From the sequence record OZ413489.1: 64,000 bases of DNA. One strand, written 5' to 3'. The notes below the pieces were generated by a model. It ran no database searches and had not been told where the DNA came from. It worked only from the letters and a program-made list of their open reading frames with translations. This stretch comes from a phage. Positions 19,231 to 63,335 of this stretch are shown here, one piece after another. The position numbers and the translations under genes are program-made. The first letter of the stretch is position 1, and each line of letters opens with the position of its first letter.

Positions 19231-19364
19231 GTGTCAGTTAGGTCACATTATGTCAGACAAGTTTTTCTCCTCTTTGTCAAGTGCTGCATGAAAAATTTAC
19301 AAGCTTGTATGGTAGCATTTTTGCGGCCCTGTTTACATTCAGTAATGTATGTATAATCCTTGTT

Positions 19365-19527
19365 GTGTGGGCGTTTAGACGTCTAGACGGTTGGAAGTCC
19401 ACAGGTCAATATCTAATCTATCGGCTGCTAACTATATCCCACACATGTGTGGGCGTTTAGACGTCTAGACGGTTGGAAGTCCACAGGTCAATATCTAATC
19501 TATCGGCTGCTAACTATATCCCACACA
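19365..19527 (+). repeat. perfect tandem duplication of an 81-bp unit (82-bp period)
   Basis: Unit gtgtgggcg...tagacgtcta...cccacaca twice; 7-bp terminal inverted repeat gtgtggg/cccacac; tataat hexamer at 19351-19356. Confidence 0.8.
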
Positions 19528-19789
19528 AATAGTAAGAAATATGATTGTTATATGCGTAAACTGTAACTCATGTTATCAATCCCTGTATGGATCGCCAGTG
19601 GTGCGCATAATAGGTATTATGTTAAATTGCCCGTAATGATAACAGTTCTCACAATGATAGGTATTCTCATTCATCCACACAAAATAGGTTGCAAATGTTG
19701 TGCCACTGTGTGAACGGCCTGGCCTATTAATTTCTCTCACTGCCTCGATATTTGAGAATTGTTATAAGAATGAGAAGTATTCCCATTCC

Positions 19790-20130
19790 GTCCGCCTGGC
19801 AGCACTCCTGTAGGTCCTGCAAGGACTCTAGCTGAAAGCTAGACCCTTCGGGCCTCCCTGTAGGTCAGGTCAAAATCGTGGTAGAATTGGGCCTGTTCAG
19901 ATATTTCTGGCTGACTCTTCAGGTCTGTGTGGGAAAAGCCAACCTCTCCGGCGGGGCAGGGGGTCATGACGGGAAAATTGCAGGTCAATTAAAAAATTTA
20001 CGTGGTGTATGAAGCGCTCTTCAGGTAAGGCATGTATTATGGGATGAAACCCTCTTCAGGCAATGATATTTGTGGGTGTGATATTTGCTGGAAAGCCAGA
20101 TATGACGGGACTCCCGGCGGGGATGGGGTA
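19790..20130. repeat. GC-rich segment with recurring short motifs
   Basis: ctcttcagg x3 (plus one at 20465), ccggcgggg x2, cctgtaggtc x2, atgacggg x2. Confidence 0.55.
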
Positions 20131-20823
20131 GTACAGACAGGGAAAATATGAGAATGTAGTTGGGGAAATTGATCAGACAGGTAGAGTATGGAATATGTTA
20201 CAAGTATGTTAAATATGGAGGTTGAATATCTGTAGGATTTGTGTGTAAAATCAAAGACTTAAGGGGTGTTGTGGTATTTTCTATAAATAATTCAAGTTTA
20301 ATAGGCAATATTTGTCTCTATCCGCTTTGTGTGGTAAACAGATTCAGATTAGATTGGTTTACAAGTGTATACATAATATACAAATTAAAGATACAAGAAA
20401 CCCCCCTCCCCCTTCGGCTACCATTCACCTTTTCCTCTGACTGGTACTTAAACACTTATTCAGACTCTTCAGGTTATCACCCATATATCATATGGCAGTG
20501 ACTGGTGTCCTCCGGCCCCTCTTTCGTCACCCGTCCGCTTCGCCATGCTAATGCCATAGCCAATGGTTCGGTTGTTCACTCTGTTCACTCAGGTGTATCT
20601 CCATACCCCTTCAAACCGAAGAGAACAGAAAACCCGAATTACTCGGTAAAAGAAAAGAGAAGAACTTAATTTTATCAGGATAGGCAAGAATGTCAAGGCA
20701 TGACTGCTCACTAAACAAGCAAACAGTCATGTGTGGAAGGTAAGTGATTGTGGTGGTGGGAAATTTAGTTGAAAGATGTGTTATAGGTGCTCCCAGCACT
20801 TTAGCCGGGTAGCTAATTGTGTG

Positions 20824-21039
20824 TCAGTCCAGTGGTTCATCACCTACTTCACTGAAATCAATGTTCATGGTCTCCTCCCAACCATCAATCTCAGCACCAG
20901 AGTAGAGATCTTTAGGACTTACTCCCAAAGCATCAGCAACAGAGTCCATATTTAACACCTCTGGCAGGTATGATTCATCGAATTCAAGGTAAATCAGGCC
21001 ACGAGTGTTGTCAGCTCCACCAAATATTTCTATCTTCAT
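20824..21039 (-). CDS. hypothetical acidic protein
   Basis: Start at MKIEIF after aggag RBS; last gene of minus block. Confidence 0.5.
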   Translation of the reverse strand: MKIEIFGGADNTRGLIYLEFDESYLPEVLNMDSVADALGVSPKDLYSGAEIDGWEETMNIDFSEVGDEPLD

Positions 21040-21159
21040 GAAATCTCCTCTGGGAATGAGAGTGTGAACAGGGTTTATACGTTCCAATGCGCTGGAATTA
21101 TGCACGTTTGCCTCTTCAGGCCATGCTTCAGCATGAGGAACCTGTGTGGGCTCGGTGCT

Positions 21160-21372
21160 TCATAGTCTACCACCCCTGAACTCTTCGTGCTCAGGCATAA
21201 TAGAGAACCAGATATCTACGATGTCTTCCCACGTCAGGTCATCAGCCTCAGGATCTACCTGGAGCGAAGATGAAGAATCTTCAGAATCGAAGTTTTCCTC
21301 TTGCACTGGCTCAGTCAAGGGACATATAGTCACTCCTTTGGATGTCTCTTCAGATGCATGTGTGTTTATCAT
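21160..21372 (-). CDS. hypothetical acidic protein
   Basis: 70-aa ORF; start overlaps stop of upstream small ORF. Confidence 0.35.
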   Translation of the reverse strand: MINTHASEETSKGVTICPLTEPVQEENFDSEDSSSSLQVDPEADDLTWEDIVDIWFSIMPEHEEFRGGRL

Positions 21373-21470
21373 GTTCCACCCGTGAGTATTCCGGCAACAG
21401 CTGCTATGGACGTAATGATCATCAGGATCACCACTAAAACTTCGGACAATGTTCTCATTGTGTACTCCAT
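21369..21470 (-). CDS. small membrane peptide (33 aa)
   Basis: Hydrophobic LVVILMIITSIAAVAGIL; ATGA coupling to next gene; no clear RBS. Confidence 0.25.
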   Translation of the reverse strand: MEYTMRTLSEVLVVILMIITSIAAVAGILTGGT

Positions 21471-21732
21471 ATTCTACAAACTATGTGTGGATACTATCAC
21501 TGGATCGGTAATGTGTCAACAGAAACGCCGCGAGGGTTTGGTTAAAATCCGAGCGTATGGTGATTTGGGTCAAAACGGACGTGCGTTCTCGCTACGCTCG
21601 AAATATGGAGTTGTTTGTAGGGAGCTCTTAAACGCTCTGTAATGAAATTAACTACCCAAGGTATGCAATCGTGCACCAGACAAAGAAAAGGACGCCACAG
21701 AGCGTCCTAGGTGTCTTAAATTTGATATTTTG

Positions 21733-22044
21733 CTATACCCACGAGGGCTTATCAAGGTTGGAGTAGCTGAAAGGTGTCAAAAGGTGACTGTCAAAATCTC
21801 TCAAACTATCCAAATCTTTTTCCTCGTCCTGACACCATCTGTGCCTACATTTGTTGTTGTAGTGCATGGAATGCATAGCGTTCTGCAACTTAACAGGCAC
21901 AAGTGATTCAGGAGTAGATAGTATTGTTGGGTATGCCAGAACCACCTCAAACAGTGGAAACACATCGAAACTAAAGTCTACCTCTGCAGAGGTTGATGGC
22001 ATATAGGAGTATTTAGCCGCCTTTGTAGACATAATCCACCTCAC
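21733..22044 (-). CDS. hypothetical protein
   Basis: 103-aa ORF. Confidence 0.55.
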   Translation of the reverse strand: MRWIMSTKAAKYSYMPSTSAEVDFSFDVFPLFEVVLAYPTILSTPESLVPVKLQNAMHSMHYNNKCRHRWCQDEEKDLDSLRDFDSHLLTPFSYSNLDKPSWV

Positions 22045-56705: not shown

Positions 56706-57467
56706 TTAAAGTTCCATAAAGTTTTCTACGGTCTCAATGAATGTTTTATCAGAGAAGGCATCAACCGCACCGTTAAACCAAACTGGGATGCCGCGATCCT
56801 CATACTGGTAAATATCACTACGTGAAATGCCATTCTCCTCTAGATGCTGTGAGTCGTATTTATTAACGATCAGTAGTTTGGTTCCCTTATTGCAGGCAGG
56901 GAATAGCTCCCAGTTAAAATTGATAACTGTGTTGGAACACCCTACAAGGATAACCATATCATTGCTTGTAAGAGAAGTCAACAGGTCATACATGTCTGTA
57001 TACTTCGGAGCTACTTCTCCGAAGAACACCACATTAGGTTTAACCCAGGTATACTTTCCTGCATCTACCTCAGAGTATCCAATGTCCTTAATGACGTCAC
57101 TTCCTTCATCGTCCTCATAGACTATTTCTGGCAAATACCCGTGAACATGTAAAATATCTTCATGTTTTACACCAGCACGCTCCAGCAAATCATCTACATT
57201 GGTGGTAAGGTTGATCACACGACCAGACCAGCGGGAATACCACTCAGCGATCCGAAGATGTGCAAGGTTAGGCTCAACACCGCCTAGAGCTACACGACGT
57301 GCATTGTAAAAGTCATGCACCTTGTAGTAGTTCTTGGCAAAGGTGTGGATGTTGCACACCTCATCGATGCTGAAATTCTCCCACATTGCAGTGCTACCAG
57401 ATCGGAAAGTGGGAATACCAGATTCAGCGCTCAAACCAGCACCGGAGATAATAATCAGTCGTCGCAT
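56706..57467 (-). CDS. Sir2-family (sirtuin-like) NAD-dependent protein
   Basis: GAGLSAESGIPTFR, TTNVDDL and HG motifs match Sir2/CobB; no Zn-ribbon Cys pairs seen. Confidence 0.7.
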   Translation of the reverse strand: MRRLIIISGAGLSAESGIPTFRSGSTAMWENFSIDEVCNIHTFAKNYYKVHDFYNARRVALGGVEPNLAHLRIAEWYSRWSGRVINLTTNVDDLLERAGVKHEDILHVHGYLPEIVYEDDEGSDVIKDIGYSEVDAGKYTWVKPNVVFFGEVAPKYTDMYDLLTSLTSNDMVILVGCSNTVINFNWELFPACNKGTKLLIVNKYDSQHLEENGISRSDIYQYEDRGIPVWFNGAVDAFSDKTFIETVENFMEL

Positions 57468-57475
57468 AAGTGTCC

Positions 57476-57826
57476 TCAGTAGATGTTTTGTTTAATCTCT
57501 ATTCCAAACTTTTTAAACGAGTCAGCTGCAAGCATGAATTTACGAGCCGCTGATGGGTTAGAAGTATGCACGAAAATCTTCACGTTGTCAACTACAGGGG
57601 GCTTACCAAATACAAATTTTTCCTCCAACATAGATAGGCAATCGTACCCTTCGAACACCTCTCCAAGGTCGTTGTCCATGTGCCACTCAGAAACGCGTCT
57701 GTAGAGCTTTCCCCTATCGTTAATAAAATCTATAAACTCGGAGGAATTCTTTAGCCAAATAGCGTCTGGGAGCCCATAATTTGACGGATCTCTCAAGTCA
57801 TCCAGCCACACAATCAACTTCTTCAT
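57476..57826 (-). CDS. hypothetical protein
   Basis: 116-aa ORF between Sir2 and RNA ligase. Confidence 0.55.
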   Translation of the reverse strand: MKKLIVWLDDLRDPSNYGLPDAIWLKNSSEFIDFINDRGKLYRRVSEWHMDNDLGEVFEGYDCLSMLEEKFVFGKPPVVDNVKIFVHTSNPSAARKFMLAADSFKKFGIEIKQNIY

Positions 57827-58758
57827 TGCATATAGTTCTCGTTGTGGAAATAGTAATCAAGTATCTCACGGCGTTCCTGCTCCAGGAGGCAGTTCCACAC
57901 ATCTTCTGTGTAATTGTTACGAATGAAGTTTACCATGCCGTAAAACTCTTCGTCAACACGTTTAAAGATATCATCATCCCAAATCCTCCAAGCTTTACCC
58001 CTCATTACGGCCTTCCGTGCCAGGTAGTATGGAGACTTGATCTTCAGCTGCAGGTCATAAGGGTAGTAAGGCTTACGGATCATATACCCTTCGCCCCTTG
58101 TTTCTGCGGCTAATTCTTTTGCATAGCTGAACGGGATTTCACGCACAGTGTGAGGACGTTTTGCACCAAGGTATTTGGCAATCCCATCTAAAGCTGCTTC
58201 TGGTAGCATTATTCCAGAATCATTATATCTGCAACCTATCAAATATGCGCCATGGTCTTCTTGAACAATATGCGGATCTGAAGGGTGACAAATTTCAAAC
58301 ATGAATGTCATGTTTTCATTGCCCATAACCTTCTTGATAAGATCTAAATTACCACATTGCTCTTGGATGGTTTCCTTTGCAAGGTTACAATATGGAGAAT
58401 CAAGAGACCCGGTTGTTGAGAACAATAGGTCACCTTTATGAGATGATACCACACCAAGGAATCCGTTCTTTTTCTCTACCGCAGTCACAAGCTTATTGTC
58501 AGGCAGGTTGGTGGAGTTTTCTCCCAAGTTAAACACTTTTGTGAAGGGCCATGCCACAACATTTCCTTCATTACCTACAACAATGCCTCGACACTCCAGT
58601 AAACGAGGGGACAAATGCCATAAATTGTTGTAAAATACTTTTCTAGCATATTTATAGATCTTTAACCCAAGATCCGGGTAATATCTACTGGTTACAAGAC
58701 CTTTGTCAACTAGGTCGTCTGCATTAAAATACTTCATCATACGTTCCTCATTTGTCAT
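57823..58758 (-). CDS. RNA ligase, T4 RnlA (Rnl1)-like
   Basis: LLECRGIVVG...KVFNLGEN resembles T4 Rnl1 (ALECRGIMFE...FFNLNENP); nucleotidyltransferase motif EKKNG. Confidence 0.6.
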   Translation of the reverse strand: MTNEERMMKYFNADDLVDKGLVTSRYYPDLGLKIYKYARKVFYNNLWHLSPRLLECRGIVVGNEGNVVAWPFTKVFNLGENSTNLPDNKLVTAVEKKNGFLGVVSSHKGDLLFSTTGSLDSPYCNLAKETIQEQCGNLDLIKKVMGNENMTFMFEICHPSDPHIVQEDHGAYLIGCRYNDSGIMLPEAALDGIAKYLGAKRPHTVREIPFSYAKELAAETRGEGYMIRKPYYPYDLQLKIKSPYYLARKAVMRGKAWRIWDDDIFKRVDEEFYGMVNFIRNNYTEDVWNCLLEQERREILDYYFHNENYMQ

Positions 58759-58801
58759 TTTGTCAGTCTATCCTGCCACACAAATAACCTAGTGTCAACA
58801 C

Positions 58802-58830
58802 TTGAAATTAACAAAACAGTTAGGTATACT
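58802..58830 (+). promoter_or_regulatory. sigma70-like promoter (ttgaaa-17-tatact)
   Basis: In the divergent intergenic region upstream of the kinase gene. Confidence 0.5.
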
Positions 58831-58858
58831 ATCGTTGAAATTAAAACGGAGTATTACT

Positions 58859-59269
58859 ATGTCTAAAATGCTATATATCGTGCGTGGTCTACCAGGGTCT
58901 GGCAAATCAACACTGGCAAATGCGCTATCTTTAGAAGGTCTGTATCCACATTTTGAGAACGACATGTTCTGGTACGACGATGATGGAAATTACAACTGGG
59001 ATGCAAGTAAAGTAACACTTGCAGCAAAATGGTGCAAAGATAACGTAGAAGATATGATGCGTATGGGATACGACCGTATCGTGGTAAGTAATACGTTTAC
59101 AAAAGAAAAATATGTGCAAGAATATATTGACATGGCGATCAGTCATGGGTATAGTTATACCGTGATCGTGGTTGAAAACCGCCATGGTAATAAAAGCATT
59201 CATGATGTTCCAGACAGGGTTGTGGATCGTATGGAACGCCAGCTTAAAAACTGCATTAAACTTAAATGA
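58859..59269 (+). CDS. P-loop polynucleotide 5'-kinase-like protein
   Basis: Walker A RGLPGSGKST; layout similar to the T4 Pnk kinase domain; track start 58802 lies in the promoter. Confidence 0.55.
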   Translation: MSKMLYIVRGLPGSGKSTLANALSLEGLYPHFENDMFWYDDDGNYNWDASKVTLAAKWCKDNVEDMMRMGYDRIVVSNTFTKEKYVQEYIDMAISHGYSYTVIVVENRHGNKSIHDVPDRVVDRMERQLKNCIKLK

Positions 59270-59276
59270 GGAATGT

Positions 59277-59831
59277 ATGAAATACTTTGTAACAAGCGAC
59301 ACACACTTTCTCCACCAGCGGGTCATGGAGTTCGATTCATGTCAAAAACACAGATCTCAGTATGATCACAATCTTGACAGTATGAATGCGGGAATCATCG
59401 CCGAGTGGAACTCTGTTGTGTCACCTGCAGACACTGTGTTCCACTTGGGAGATATTGCGTGCACTAATGATAAGAATATCAACAACTTACTTCCAGATAT
59501 TCTAAATATGTTGAACGGACATATTATTCTTGTTCGTGGCAACCATGACACAAGGACGACTGTCAGAATTATGAAAGAGTTCGGTCATGAGGTTGTAGAT
59601 TATTACGAGCTTCGCCACAACAAGAATTTGATCTGTATGAGCCATTACCAATTTGCAAAGTGGAACAGAAAGCCTCACGGATCAGTCCAACTGTTCGGTC
59701 ATGCTCACGGAACCACACAACAGTTGTTTGGCAGGCAGCTTGATGTCGGTTGGGATGTGTGGGGGAGACTCTTACCATTAGAAGAGGCATACCGTATTGC
59801 AATGAGTTTTGCTATTGACAGCGGGGAGTAA
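59277..59831 (+). CDS. calcineurin-like metallophosphoesterase
   Basis: VTSDTHF, HLGDI and GNHDT phosphoesterase motifs; start at MKYFVTSD. Confidence 0.7.
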   Translation: MKYFVTSDTHFLHQRVMEFDSCQKHRSQYDHNLDSMNAGIIAEWNSVVSPADTVFHLGDIACTNDKNINNLLPDILNMLNGHIILVRGNHDTRTTVRIMKEFGHEVVDYYELRHNKNLICMSHYQFAKWNRKPHGSVQLFGHAHGTTQQLFGRQLDVGWDVWGRLLPLEEAYRIAMSFAIDSGE

Positions 59832-59878
59832 TCCCTGCTATTTTAAAGAAAATTGCCACACAAGGAGAATCAGGAGAT

Positions 59879-60229
59879 ATGAAAGATGGGGATAAGCTGC
59901 TATATCTTAAAGTCCCCCTTGAAATACTGTCTATGTCAAAAGTTTTGAATGACACAACTGGAGAGGTTGTTGTTCTTGACTTGTATGACAAGATCGTATA
60001 CTGCTACCTGCACAACTGGTATAAGCTTGGAGGAAATTCACGCTTCACACCCAGCACAAGGAAAATTGCAGCAGATGTTGGGATAAAGAAAACAAAAGCA
60101 GCAGCGTGCGTTAAAACTTTAGAGTGTGCAGGGGTGGTTGAAACATCCACACAAGGGAGAGGTAAAAGATGCACATTTTCCAAAGTTTTGCCACCAGAAG
60201 AAGTTATTCGGATGTCAACAACTGGTTAG
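59879..60229 (+). CDS. winged-helix DNA-binding protein (replication-organizer or repressor-like)
   Basis: PSTRKIAADVGIKKTKAAACVKTLECAGVVE resembles HTH of phage replication initiators; operator array immediately downstream. Confidence 0.5.
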   Translation: MKDGDKLLYLKVPLEILSMSKVLNDTTGEVVVLDLYDKIVYCYLHNWYKLGGNSRFTPSTRKIAADVGIKKTKAAACVKTLECAGVVETSTQGRGKRCTFSKVLPPEEVIRMSTTG

Positions 60230-60288
60230 ACCAGTAAAAACTTAAATATCTGTACTATAAGGATTCGTATGTTTTATGTTCGCCATGG

Positions 60289-60386
60289 AACGGATACTAT
60301 TAACTGTCCGTGATACGGACACTACTGTCCGTCACGCGGACACATCTGCCCGTAATACGGACACTAACTGTCCGTGATACGGACAC
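60289..60386 (+). promoter_or_regulatory. array of four palindromic operators (ctgtccgt-N3-acggacac)
   Basis: Copies at 60304-60322, 60325-60343, 60346-60364, 60368-60386; 21-22 bp centre-to-centre. Confidence 0.7.
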
Positions 60387-60529
60387 ATAAAGAATATAAC
60401 TAAAATAACTAAATAATAAAAAATAAAAGATCTAGTACTTATGGTACTAAGTACATATACTTAACTTATGTAGAATATACTAGATCCTAAGTACCATGTT
60501 TTAAATTTATTACTTACTATGGGCAGTGT

Positions 60530-60790
60530 CGGCCCTTCATTGGCACTCGCCTACGAGGGGCGAGATGCCGTGCCTCCTTGGTGTACACAATAACAGAAGT
60601 GCATACATGCAGGTCTGTTAACATGTGTGGGAGCGAAGCGATAGCGCAGGCCAAAGGCCGAGCACTGCTGTGGACCACCGACGAAAGCTTGCCAGCGCCG
60701 TAAGGAGTCGGTTGAGAGTCTCCCGCGCGAGCTTGGATGAAGTTTATGTGTGGAAACTGACAAGAAGGTCCCTAAATCGCTCCACAGCCA
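60530..60790 (+). other. GC-rich hairpin-dense island; candidate structured RNA or leader
   Basis: Sharp composition shift; multiple stem-loops; only ORF is antisense and non-protein-like. Confidence 0.3.
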
Positions 60791-60889
60791 TGTAAACTAT
60801 ACCAAGTAAGGCAATCGCACCAGTTTGATAGAAAAGCTCGTTACAAAGCGATACAGTGAGTTTTTCTATAACTTGAAGAGGAGGCAGCT

Positions 60890-61468
60890 ATGAGTCCACG
60901 CAAAGATGACCGTGAAAAGATTGCAAAACGTTATCAGAATGAAGAACAGATGGAGAAAACTTTCAAGTGGAAGCCAGGTTTCCAGCGTAATCATTCTAAC
61001 GCTCGTGATCGTAAGCATCCGGATAAGTGGTTAACACCGCCAAATGATGGCATGCAGGTTGGGGATGAGAAGGAGCTGTCACCTGGAAAAGATGGCAACT
61101 ACATTCGCACTAAGGAAGCAGGTCCAAAGGATGACAGCTATCTTGTAGATAAGGTTCTTGATGGTATTGATGTAGATGTTGACACTGCACGAAACCTTTT
61201 TCTTGGTTGGTATCGTACAGGGTTTTTCGACATCAAGGCTATTCGTCGTGTTTGTGATATTAAAAAGTCTGCATATGATGATGACTCTCTACATCGCACT
61301 CTGAGACAATGCTCAGAGAGATACGGTCATCCAGTTATCACTCTTGACGATATTAACGAAGTGATGTATCATGCAGAGGTTGTTGCAGGTAGATTCGGTG
61401 ATGCATATCTCGGTATTCTTTCTGCAAAAGATGAGGTAATGTTAAATAAAATTTACTATGAACGCTGA
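60890..61468 (+). CDS. hypothetical protein
   Basis: 192-aa ORF, RBS gaggagg. Confidence 0.65.
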   Translation: MSPRKDDREKIAKRYQNEEQMEKTFKWKPGFQRNHSNARDRKHPDKWLTPPNDGMQVGDEKELSPGKDGNYIRTKEAGPKDDSYLVDKVLDGIDVDVDTARNLFLGWYRTGFFDIKAIRRVCDIKKSAYDDDSLHRTLRQCSERYGHPVITLDDINEVMYHAEVVAGRFGDAYLGILSAKDEVMLNKIYYER

Positions 61469-61667
61469 GGAGCGCTTAATGAACAACCCGGTAGCAAAGA
61501 ACTGTAATAAGTTCAACAAGTCTGCAATTCACACTGACAGGAAAAAGAGCTGGTCTCCTGACATTGACGAGGAGCTTGAGAGTTACTTTGAAGACCTGGT
61601 CACTAATGCAGATGAGGTTGCGATTAAAGAATACGCAGACAGGAAGGATAAGGCCGGAATCTGTTGA
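61458..61667 (+). CDS. hypothetical protein
   Basis: 69-aa ORF. Confidence 0.5.
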   Translation: MNAEERLMNNPVAKNCNKFNKSAIHTDRKKSWSPDIDEELESYFEDLVTNADEVAIKEYADRKDKAGIC

Positions 61668-61743
61668 CAAAAATAGTGTTACCTGATAAGATCTGCAATA
61701 TGATGTGATGCAATTTTAACTTACGAGGTCTACAGGTAATGCT

Positions 61744-61986
61744 ATGTTTAAGGTTAAGCTCGTTTTTCGTTCCATGAATGAGGATTATTTAGAAGATGAA
61801 GGTGAATTTCGTGCACTGGATGATGCAATAGATTTTGCCAACGACTTAGCTTGTATGAATACAGGTTATGGGCTATGTTGTTGGGATGGTGGTGTTCAGA
61901 TCGGTGATAGCAAGATCTTCTACTTCTACCCTGAGCCTGATAACAAACAAATTAAGTATGTTTTATTTATTTGTGCTTTACAATGA
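61744..61986 (+). CDS. hypothetical protein
   Basis: 80-aa ORF. Confidence 0.55.
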   Translation: MFKVKLVFRSMNEDYLEDEGEFRALDDAIDFANDLACMNTGYGLCCWDGGVQIGDSKIFYFYPEPDNKQIKYVLFICALQ

Positions 61987-62039
61987 GGTTGTTTTCGTGT
62001 ATCATGATGAATATCCAATTTAAAGATGAATTTGATGGC

Positions 62040-62300
62040 TTTATCTCTGGATGCTTTGAAACAGGGTTCGGAGAAGACTGAGTTCCCCTTAGAGGGCTTG
62101 ATAGTGCACCACACTTAAAATGGTAGGGGCAGCCAGCACATGACGATGTGACCCCAGCCAACCTGTAACAAGGTCGAGCCGAAGCGCGGGTAATAGGCCT
62201 CTGGTAACCCACTTGTTGGGTCTTGCTGGCCCAGGACGCTGGACAAGTCGCAGGGAATACCACCCTGCGGCGAACTTGACAATCAGTATTTGCTATGATA
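62040..62300 (+). other. GC-rich island; candidate structured RNA or leader
   Basis: Composition shift; stem-loops; in-frame extension upstream of ATG 62333 looks non-coding. Confidence 0.3.
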
Positions 62301-62332
62301 AAATCCACCTATCACGTGATAATGGAGGAAAC

Positions 62333-62671
62333 ATGGCGGATACAACTAAAAAGCGTCGCCGTAGAGGCAGACCTCTGAAAGAGGAGTCCAACGCCATTCA
62401 GCTAGAGAAGAACATCCTTGATATGAAGGAATCTTTTATAGCGATGGTTCCAGAAGCTCACAAAGTTTTAAGAGAGCTGATGTTGGACCCGAAAACCAAA
62501 CAAAATATTCGTCAAAGCATTGCAGAGTATGTTCTTGATAAGGCAGACCGAATGCAGGAAGAATATGATGAGATGTTTGGTGAAGAGGAAGAGGTGGTAG
62601 TGGAAGAGGCTGAAAAACCAGCACCTTTTATGCCATTTACTACAGAAATACAGCCTGTTAGCAATAGCTAA
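62333..62671 (+). CDS. AT-hook-like basic/acidic DNA-binding protein
   Basis: N-terminal KKRRRRGRPLKE (RGRP AT-hook core) and acidic C-terminus; RBS ggagga. Confidence 0.55.
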   Translation: MADTTKKRRRRGRPLKEESNAIQLEKNILDMKESFIAMVPEAHKVLRELMLDPKTKQNIRQSIAEYVLDKADRMQEEYDEMFGEEEEVVVEEAEKPAPFMPFTTEIQPVSNS

Positions 62672-62680
62672 AATATTTTC

Positions 62681-62709
62681 TTGACAAACTTTGCTTAACA
62701 GTGTAATAT
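62681..62709 (+). promoter_or_regulatory. sigma70-like promoter upstream of tRNA cluster (ttgaca-17-taatat)
   Basis: Hexamers at 62681-62686 and 62704-62709. Confidence 0.55.
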
Positions 62710-62767
62710 TGTAAACATGGTCTCCCACCTTTTCTGGCGGCTAAGGTGTAAAAGAAAGCCACCCAGT

Positions 62768-62842
62768 GCCCTGTTAGCTTAGTGGATAAAGCAGCGGCCT
62801 TCTAAGCCGTTGACACTGGTTCGAGTCCAGTACGGGGTGCCA
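62768..62842 (+). tRNA. tRNA-Arg (anticodon UCU)
   Basis: Cloverleaf folded by hand; loop cttctaa; TTCGAGT T-loop; encoded CCA. Confidence 0.75.
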
Positions 62843-63236: not shown

Positions 63237-63335
63237 GCTAGGTAAGCCCTTTGGCAAGGGCGAGGATTTTTAATCCTGAAAATAGACGAGGTAGTCGTTG
63301 AATACATAGGTGGTTCGATTCCATCACCTAGCACC
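63237..63335 (+). tRNA. tRNA-like gene with aberrant anticodon arm
   Basis: Acceptor gctaggt/acctagc, D-arm and T-arm fold; anticodon region is either a 5-nt loop or a 4-bp stem with loop tttttaa; 3' end is CC then T. Confidence 0.35.

Follow-up and report, generated by a model that had tools for sequence, protein, structure and literature searches.

A candidate iteron-type replication origin beside a winged-helix gene in an rV5-like coliphage

The 64,000-nucleotide stretch of phage DNA described here (sequence record OZ413489.1, one strand read 5' to 3'; the whole stretch is called the window, and coordinates refer to it unless stated otherwise) contains a compact module in which the gene of a small winged-helix protein is followed by four phased palindromic repeats, an A-rich tract and an inverted repeat. 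We consider it slightly better than an even chance, with a probability of about 0.55, that the phage initiates its replication at this module, be it the only origin or one of several, and that the origin is of the iteron type known from phage λ. The case is built on the anatomy of the module, its statistical significance, its uniqueness within the genome, its conservation and its recurrence beside diverged homologues, and it is from these that we infer binding, unwinding and initiation. The parts of the module are the following:

59879..60229, plus strand: gene for a 116-aa winged-helix protein (rV5 gp075, Bas53_0214), preceded by a GGAGA ribosome-binding site
60301..60386, no strand assigned: array of four units of 21-22 bp, presumed iterons
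60387..60431, plus strand: A-rich tract of 91% AT which directly abuts the array, presumed DNA-unwinding element
60420..60432, minus strand: GATCTTTTATTTT, a match to the 13-mer consensus of E. coli oriC
60429-60437 and 60478-60486, no strand assigned: conserved inverted repeat of 9 bp, GATCTAGTA ... TACTAGATC, which encloses GTACTTA/TAAGTAC motifs

Over the 3 kb around the module the sequence shares 99.4% identity with Escherichia phage JohannBauhin (Bas53), and about 117 other rV5-like phages of the genus Vequintavirus reach 95-99%; judged by this identity, the source of the window is an rV5-like coliphage belonging to that genus. Genome-wide counts were made in the complete genome of JohannBauhin (135.6 kb), the window coordinate being the JohannBauhin coordinate minus 71601. 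Phages resembling rV5 rank with the most frequently isolated coliphages, and both phage therapy and biocontrol make use of them. Our literature search found nothing which maps or proposes an origin for them.

Repeat array

The array, on whose extent Tandem Repeats Finder and a repeat finder agree, starts 71 bp past the stop codon of the winged-helix gene (stop at 60229). Each unit holds a 7-3-7 palindrome, TGTCCGT-N3-ACGGACA, with a core of 17 bp. Two of the cores, at 60305-60321 and 60369-60385, are exact (TGTCCGTGATACGGACA, read as TGTCCGT GAT ACGGACA), and the two situated between them deviate by a single mismatch each (TGTCCGTCACGCGGACA at 60326-60342 and TGCCCGTAATACGGACA at 60347-60363). 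The start-to-start distances of the cores amount to 21, 21 and 22 bp, which corresponds to a phasing at two helical turns. Four palindrome copies spaced 21-22 bp apart had already been described in the first-pass annotation of this DNA, and the repeat finders, the measured spacing and a test against chance confirm them: within the 64-kb window five matches are present at up to two mismatches where 0.15 are expected, and none of 100 shuffles reached five. In the whole 135.6-kb JohannBauhin genome, sites with at most one mismatch are confined to the array. This uniqueness argues against a regulator with several targets. Within the array, merely two of the 56 arm positions are off consensus while the N3 centres (GAT, CAC, AAT, GAT) and the spacers between the units vary freely. 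Since the arms are kept while centres and spacers vary, a specific sequence has been retained and not mere self-complementarity, a pattern which fits sequence-specific recognition.

Conservation was assessed by aligning the gene-free gap of 660 bp which follows the winged-helix gene (60230-60889) from nine Vequintaviruses. Most of the nine carry four copies of the unit, A147 and nomine carry three and YN3 carries two, clean deletions of one or two units accounting for the lower numbers. Variable sites occur at a density of 0.30 in the 71 bp which precede the array and of 0.18 in the G+C-rich remainder of the gap, as opposed to 0.07 in the array and 0.063 in the block formed by the AT tract and the palindrome. 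No part of the gap is more constrained than the array and the AT block, which vary three to four times less than their flanks and are under purifying selection. Some database records mark the array as “repeat_region” and offer no interpretation.

GenBank record MG065672.1 (“Campylobacter phage A141”) begins exactly at the first base of the array (query position 72, corresponding to window 60301), most likely because its assembly broke at the tandem repeat. In addition, 18 genomes of the rV5 type carry a Campylobacter phage label in the database, and the one such record that we opened (MG065644) is marked UNVERIFIED; the assignment of these 18 genomes to a Campylobacter host looks doubtful.

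A-rich tract and inverted repeat

The AT-rich tract which the first reading had placed behind the repeats proves to be the 45-bp window with the highest AT content (91%) of the 135.6-kb genome, the next best reaching 84%. Its A residues are located on the strand reading away from the repeats, and the tract is nearly invariant in the nine relatives. The further palindromes claimed for this part of the gap are borne out insofar as the conserved 9-bp inverted repeat and the GTACTTA/TAAGTAC motifs are present, whereas the inverted-repeat tract, when evaluated as a DNA fold, stays within chance (z = -1.4). On this ground a cruciform was rejected as an interpretation of the palindromic tract.

On the minus strand, the 13-mer at 60420-60432 (GATCTTTTATTTT) exactly matches GATCTnTTnTTTT, the consensus of the 13-mers of E. 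coli oriC. It is the sole exact match in the window compared to 0.11 expected, and at least one match occurred in 10 of 100 shuffles. As a clue to an origin the 13-mer is suggestive only.

Winged-helix protein

The winged-helix gene noted at first pass is a real open reading frame (ORF) of 116 aa with a GGAGA ribosome-binding site, and its product is a winged-helix protein. This product is presumed to be both the site-specific binder and the initiator of the module. It matches PHROG 12838 (“replication initiation protein”) with E = 5e-80 and other initiator PHROGs weakly, and its scores against Pfam DUF6945 and HTH_36 are slightly below the cut-offs. Close homologues are confined to the genus: tblastn and protein searches with the 116-aa protein as the sole query yielded only relatives of at least 87% identity, which are either Vequintavirus proteins or unnamed contig proteins, and a locus search of IMG/VR gave no match. 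A profile search added two branches, namely 105-aa proteins of Mydovirus, Seunavirus and Henunavirus and proteins of 182-217 aa encoded by uncultured phages. Three further weak matches from an exhaustive search (P0007, P0010 and P0012) were discarded as spurious, being Ig, SLH and low-complexity proteins. The relatives, and only these, match weakly to several “replication initiation O-like” PHROGs (E ~1e-5; N-terminal domains of phage replication initiators).

An AlphaFold model calculated from the family alignment (pLDDT 78) predicts a winged helix accompanied by an N-terminal hairpin and a C-terminal helix; a single-sequence AF2 model (pLDDT 39) was unusable. Only one clear relative has a solved structure, namely PDB 4RO3, the N-terminal domain of a functionally uncharacterised protein from Vibrio cholerae; it is of no help in deciding the role of the 116-aa protein. 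Next in the Foldseek ranking are N-terminal domains of staphylococcal RepA_N initiators, which bind iterons (4pql, 4pt7 and 5kbj; E = 6e-4 to 1e-3, TM ~0.5). Both the winged-helix fold and the size of the protein are compatible with a dimer. Sequence and model together identify the protein as a probable winged-helix DNA binder, and among named families its closest kin are initiator domains; judged from the model, so generic a fold does not separate initiators from regulators. The labels given to the family are inconsistent and comprise “transcriptional regulator”, “replication initiation protein”, “DsrC like” and “hypothetical”. In RefSeq the name “replication initiation protein” has been given to the gene solely on grounds of homology, and seven homologues match Pfam PF24409, “wHTH-PRTase associated”.

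The longer homologues from uncultured phages (P0011, P0013, P0014, P0019 and P0021; loci L021 and L022) possess acidic C-termini such as DEDPDAPF, YYDTGEPF and YYDTEEPF. These acidic tails ending in Pro-Phe resemble the C-terminal tip of SSB from E. coli as well as the tails of T7 gp2.5 and gp4, which are likewise acidic and end in Phe, and they hint by analogy at contacts with replisome proteins.

No plasmid carrying the module alone was found in PLSDB, the only match there being a complete phage genome entered among the plasmids. This entry (CP057073.1, 137,565 bp, from E. coli of cattle faeces and classified as non-mobilizable) has the size of a Vequintavirus genome and encodes a winged-helix protein of 97.4% identity; it may represent a carrier state or a contamination of the culture.

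The same layout beside diverged homologues

The strongest argument in favour of an origin is provided by comparative anatomy, as deduced from the sequences of related loci. In Mydovirus, Seunavirus and Henunavirus the gene of the 105-aa homologue is situated at a divergent switch, and directly before its start codon there are two repeats, phased at 23 bp, which have a dyad symmetry of their own (GCTCAA-N-TTGAGC). Onward from these repeats follow about 55 bp of A-rich DNA, an AGATCT...AGATCT palindrome and back-to-back sigma-70-like promoters. In the uncultured group, the gene of the homologue (182-217 aa) lies just past a divergent gap of about 500 bp in which an AT tract abuts two AGGTACA repeats phased at 22 bp, with two more copies further off; in one uncultured contig, the module is placed between the genes of a primase-helicase and a DNA polymerase A. 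At every related locus examined the tract constitutes the local AT maximum (87-93%), and in all three groups the A-rich strand, as read from the sequences, runs away from the repeats. The repeat sequences themselves differ among the three groups, as a co-evolution of the sites with the protein would lead one to expect.

The arrangement of promoters, in contrast, varies. On neither strand of 60230-60889 did the promoter scan, whose scope does not extend to phage-specific promoter types, detect a sigma-70-like site. The Mydovirus repeats are located about 125-170 bp downstream of a promoter, and those of the uncultured group upstream of one. Gene, phased repeats and A-rich tract form a constant combination while the promoter geometry changes, and this is more in keeping with an origin than with an operator.

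Comparison with known origins and regulators

Compared to the annotated record of oriλ, the module consists of the same parts in the same order. oriλ contains four dyad-symmetric iterons of 18 bp spaced by 20, 24 and 23 bp, the module four palindromes of 17 bp spaced by 21, 21 and 22 bp. In oriλ, an A-rich tract of about 40 bp with the same polarity directly follows the iterons and is itself followed by a palindrome; in the module, these positions are occupied by the 45-bp tract and the inverted repeat. Both elements belong to an early, rightward-transcribed unit and both are tied to a protein with an N-terminal winged-helix domain. Yet oriλ is located inside the O gene while the array is placed outside the winged-helix gene, 71 bp after its stop codon. 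Moreover, λ O comprises 299 aa and has a C-terminal domain which recruits P-DnaB, whereas the module protein comprises 116 aa and lacks such a domain. Unlike λ, the phage has its own T7-type primase-helicase, and no loader step is expected.

The iteron plasmids (P1, F, pSC101 and pPS10 with Rep_3; staphylococcal plasmids with RepA_N) share with the module phased direct repeats, an AT-rich unwinding element and an adjacent initiator gene, and the order of AT tract, repeats and gene in the Mydovirus group is the one found in these plasmids. Their sites, however, are asymmetric while those of the module are full palindromes combined with a single-domain protein. The latter has no Pfam match to Rep_3 or RepA_N, its likeness to the RepA_N N-terminal domains consisting in the Foldseek TM of ~0.5. 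Dimeric winged-helix repressors of the MarR, SlyA and Sta1/Lrs14-like types agree with the module in fold class, size and palindromic targets. In contrast to their sites, the module has no adjoining sigma-70-like promoter, and its site is present in four phased copies beside the genome-extreme AT tract. All sequence matches of the protein to these repressor families are far under the family cut-offs.

Proposed mechanism and points against it

If the module is an origin, the following sequence of events can be envisaged. Starting from the sigma-70-like promoters at 58.8-59.8 kb, host RNA polymerase would transcribe the early genes and, in this way, bring about the production of the 116-aa winged-helix protein. 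Dimers of this protein would fill the four palindromic sites; with two helical turns between neighbouring sites, they would all occupy the same side of the DNA and could wrap or bend it into a complex. The strain of this complex, perhaps aided by transcription through the region, would melt the adjoining 45-bp A-rich tract, upon which the T7-type primase-helicase, needing no separate loader, would enter at the opened stretch and the family-A DNA polymerase would start synthesis. The phage encodes both a T7-type primase-helicase and a family-A DNA polymerase. As enzymes of the T7 gp4 type load on single-stranded DNA without a loader, a protein which merely opens the AT tract could suffice.

An origin of this kind, if it holds, would be of the well-known iteron or λ type with a notably minimal initiator. 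A broader proposal, which we put forward tentatively and to which we give somewhat less than even odds, is that minimal single-domain winged-helix initiators (DUF6945/HTH_36, 105-217 aa) define the origins of the Vequintavirinae and of related uncultured phages. At these origins two to four phased dimers would melt an A-rich tract for a self-loading T7-type primase-helicase, that is, in λ style although with neither a helicase-recruiting domain nor a loader; the acidic Pro-Phe tails of some family members could then contact replisome proteins directly. A defined origin with its cognate 116-aa initiator would provide a handle for the engineering of these phages, for instance for origin plasmids which amplify on infection or for phages whose replication is conditional. 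It would furthermore supply a test case for a T7-type replisome started by an initiator protein instead of a promoter, and assign a function to an inconsistently labelled protein family.

Several observations weigh against an origin at this place. The 116-aa protein is one small domain without a part that could recruit a helicase. An hhalign comparison of the family profile with λ O revealed no similarity (probability 0.1), and there is no Pfam match to Phage_rep_O. From 51.3 kb to the end of the window there is no match to the DnaA box TTWTNCACA. Phages with a T7-type replisome classically start replication at promoters and not at initiator-bound iterons. The homologues of the Mydovirus group head an operon with the genes of PRPP synthetase (Prs) and NAMPT and match Pfam “wHTH-PRTase associated”, which fits a regulator of that operon. 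The main minimum of the cumulative GC skew is found 1.5 kb from the module, at the divergent transcription switch, but every turn of the skew coincides with a switch in transcription direction, so that it does not locate an origin independently. For rV5, Kropinski et al. reported that the skew follows the direction of transcription and that skew analysis could not place the origin (PMC3606486). Because the GC skew is confounded by transcription direction in this manner, we do not count it as independent support.

Another origin could, moreover, be held by a 2.5-kb ORF-poor region with repeats at 19.3-21.9 kb of the window. This region (19300-21900) is the convergent end of two transcription units, forms the maximum of the cumulative GC skew and probably corresponds to the box labelled “non-coding” in the rV5 paper. 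It harbours a perfect tandem duplication of 82 bp (19364-19527) with an internal palindrome, CGTTTAGACGTCTAGACG, as well as several of the AT-rich windows of the genome; it may serve as a terminus or as a second origin.

Alternative explanations

Instead of an origin, the array might be an element of local transcriptional control. The winged-helix protein would then be a repressor or activator which has only these four operators and which, bound behind its own gene, blocks or modulates the read-through coming from the early promoters into the downstream leader, genes and tRNAs; for the Mydovirus group, an autoregulation of the wHTH-Prs-NAMPT operon would follow. The palindromic sites and a fold suited to a repressor are in line with such a role. 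The same applies to the location of the repeats in Mydovirus, Seunavirus and Henunavirus, where they are flanked by a sigma-70-like promoter on one side and by the ribosome-binding site of the winged-helix gene on the other, and to the PF24409 matches of the seven homologues, although this Pfam family was presumably built from the same phage neighbourhoods and is hence not independent. A scan for promoters and terminators found no intrinsic terminator between the winged-helix gene and the downstream genes, so a protein acting as a roadblock would have a task; further sigma-70-like promoters, however, go on at 61.3-62.7 kb downstream, and there is no obvious boundary between early and late genes which would have to be insulated. 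Neither strand of the 660-bp gap offers a promoter-like site on which an operator could act, and the geometry of the promoters is different in all three subfamilies whereas that of repeats and A-rich tract is constant. In addition, the genome-extreme and nearly invariant AT tract and the palindrome would be left unexplained by an operator. We regard a purely local control element as the main rival of an origin and as clearly the less probable of the two, and if it were nothing else the array would be an ordinary regulatory site. As initiators of the iteron type commonly autoregulate, the roles of operator and origin can coexist. The first-pass annotation had left the choice between an iteron origin and a strong repressor operator. 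The former has gained by the layout shared with oriλ, the unique cluster of sites, the extreme AT content, the recurrence beside homologues and the matches to initiator domains, while the latter has lost ground by the lack of a promoter in the gap and the inconsistent promoter geometry.

A role of the repeats as RNA hairpins, be it as a processing site (e.g. for RNase III), as a stabiliser of the 3' end of the winged-helix mRNA or as part of a structured leader, appears improbable to us. The RNA of the array folds at -43 kcal/mol with z = -8.4, but a high fold score results automatically from tandem palindromes. The array is transcribed together with the upstream genes, there being no terminator between them, a conserved and well-folding G+C-rich RNA candidate is present just downstream, and one relative (L003) changes a U·G pair of unit 2 to C-G. 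Other substitutions, in contrast, give rise to C·A mismatches (in unit 3 of the present phage and in unit 4 of FV3 and SYGMH1), and relatives which have lost whole units have altered pairing partners. The four units share the sequence of their arms while loops and spacers vary, an identity which hairpins do not need, and a role as RNA would account neither for the adjacent AT tract nor for the DNA-binding protein with which the repeats are associated in three subfamilies. Less probable still is a packaging site (pac or cosB-like) at which the helix-turn-helix (HTH) protein acts as an unannotated small terminase, comparable to Nu1 of λ and its R elements. Small terminases are small HTH proteins which bind to repeated sites near their own gene. 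None is annotated in these genomes, where a spanin gene is found upstream of the large terminase gene. The start of record MG065672 exactly at the first repeat could be taken as a sign of packaging, yet an assembly break at a tandem repeat would give the same picture. The large terminase gene, however, is several kb downstream, separated from the array by five hypothetical genes, by the tRNA cluster and by spanin genes, and the protein has no match to a small-terminase family in Pfam or PHROGs. In Mydovirus KPP-1 the direct terminal repeat is positioned at 116.3 kb and the homologous gene at 71.5 kb, i.e. about 45 kb apart, and Vequintaviruses have been reported to be circularly permuted or headful packagers (PMC8407724, PMC13211470). 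A packaging site was rejected on the basis of the position of the array and these published data on genome termini.

Genomic surroundings and further features

Around the module, the following features were recorded:

57823-58758, minus strand: T4 Rnl1-type RNA ligase
58802-59269, plus strand: PNK-like P-loop kinase
59172-59831, plus strand: metallophosphoesterase
59815..59844, plus strand: sigma-70-like promoter TTGACA-18-TATTTT with TG (promoter scan, 10 of 12 matches), just 5' of the winged-helix gene
60515..60889, plus strand: conserved G+C-rich non-coding stretch of about 375 nt which separates the module from the next gene (60890)

To the left of the module, the minus-strand genes comprise Sir2 genes and RNA ligase 1 and are followed by a divergent switch (58760-58800). 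The plus strand then carries the PNK-like ATPase, the phosphoesterase and the 116-aa HTH gene (59879-60229) in this order, and beyond the gap there are several small genes, the tRNA cluster, the spanins, and the large terminase together with structural genes. The ligase, kinase and phosphoesterase genes make up an RNA-repair-like set which flanks the divergent switch (56706-59831), with Sir2-like genes upstream. The order of this set is rearranged in Vequintavirus compared to Mydovirus and Seunavirus; the winged-helix gene remains beside its repeats. At the position equivalent to 59815..59844 the RefSeq record of rV5 annotates a promoter, “P76”. A hairpin at the end of the phosphoesterase gene (59820-59839; -13.9 kcal/mol, z = -2.7) overlaps this promoter.

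The RNA of the G+C-rich stretch at 60515-60889 folds at -139 kcal/mol (z = -4.5) when read from the plus strand, while z = -2.8 was obtained for the minus strand. The stretch contains no long ORF, and its substitutions are without codon periodicity, for which reason the small ORFs annotated there in some records were rejected. It was detected in Vequintavirus only, with an 18-bp indel in some relatives. In 60200-62800, Rfam revealed no credible RNA family at either gathering or permissive thresholds. We consider the stretch a candidate for a structured RNA or a long leader; its membership in the module is uncertain.

Within the tRNA cluster, a tRNA-like gene of 99 nt (63237-63335, plus strand) attracted our attention because ARAGORN assigns it a four-base anticodon (atcc). 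It scores weakly in Rfam (35.5 bits), and the records disagree on its label, one giving tRNA-Lys and another “tRNA-OTHER”; the gene may harbour an intron or have some other peculiarity. At the opposite end of the window, Rfam recognises a group I intron at 243-478 on the plus strand (64.7 bits compared to a gathering score of 50), at the 3' end of the annotated DNA polymerase gene. The DNA polymerase region annotated in JohannBauhin ends at about window 390, and the polymerase gene may be interrupted or mis-annotated here.

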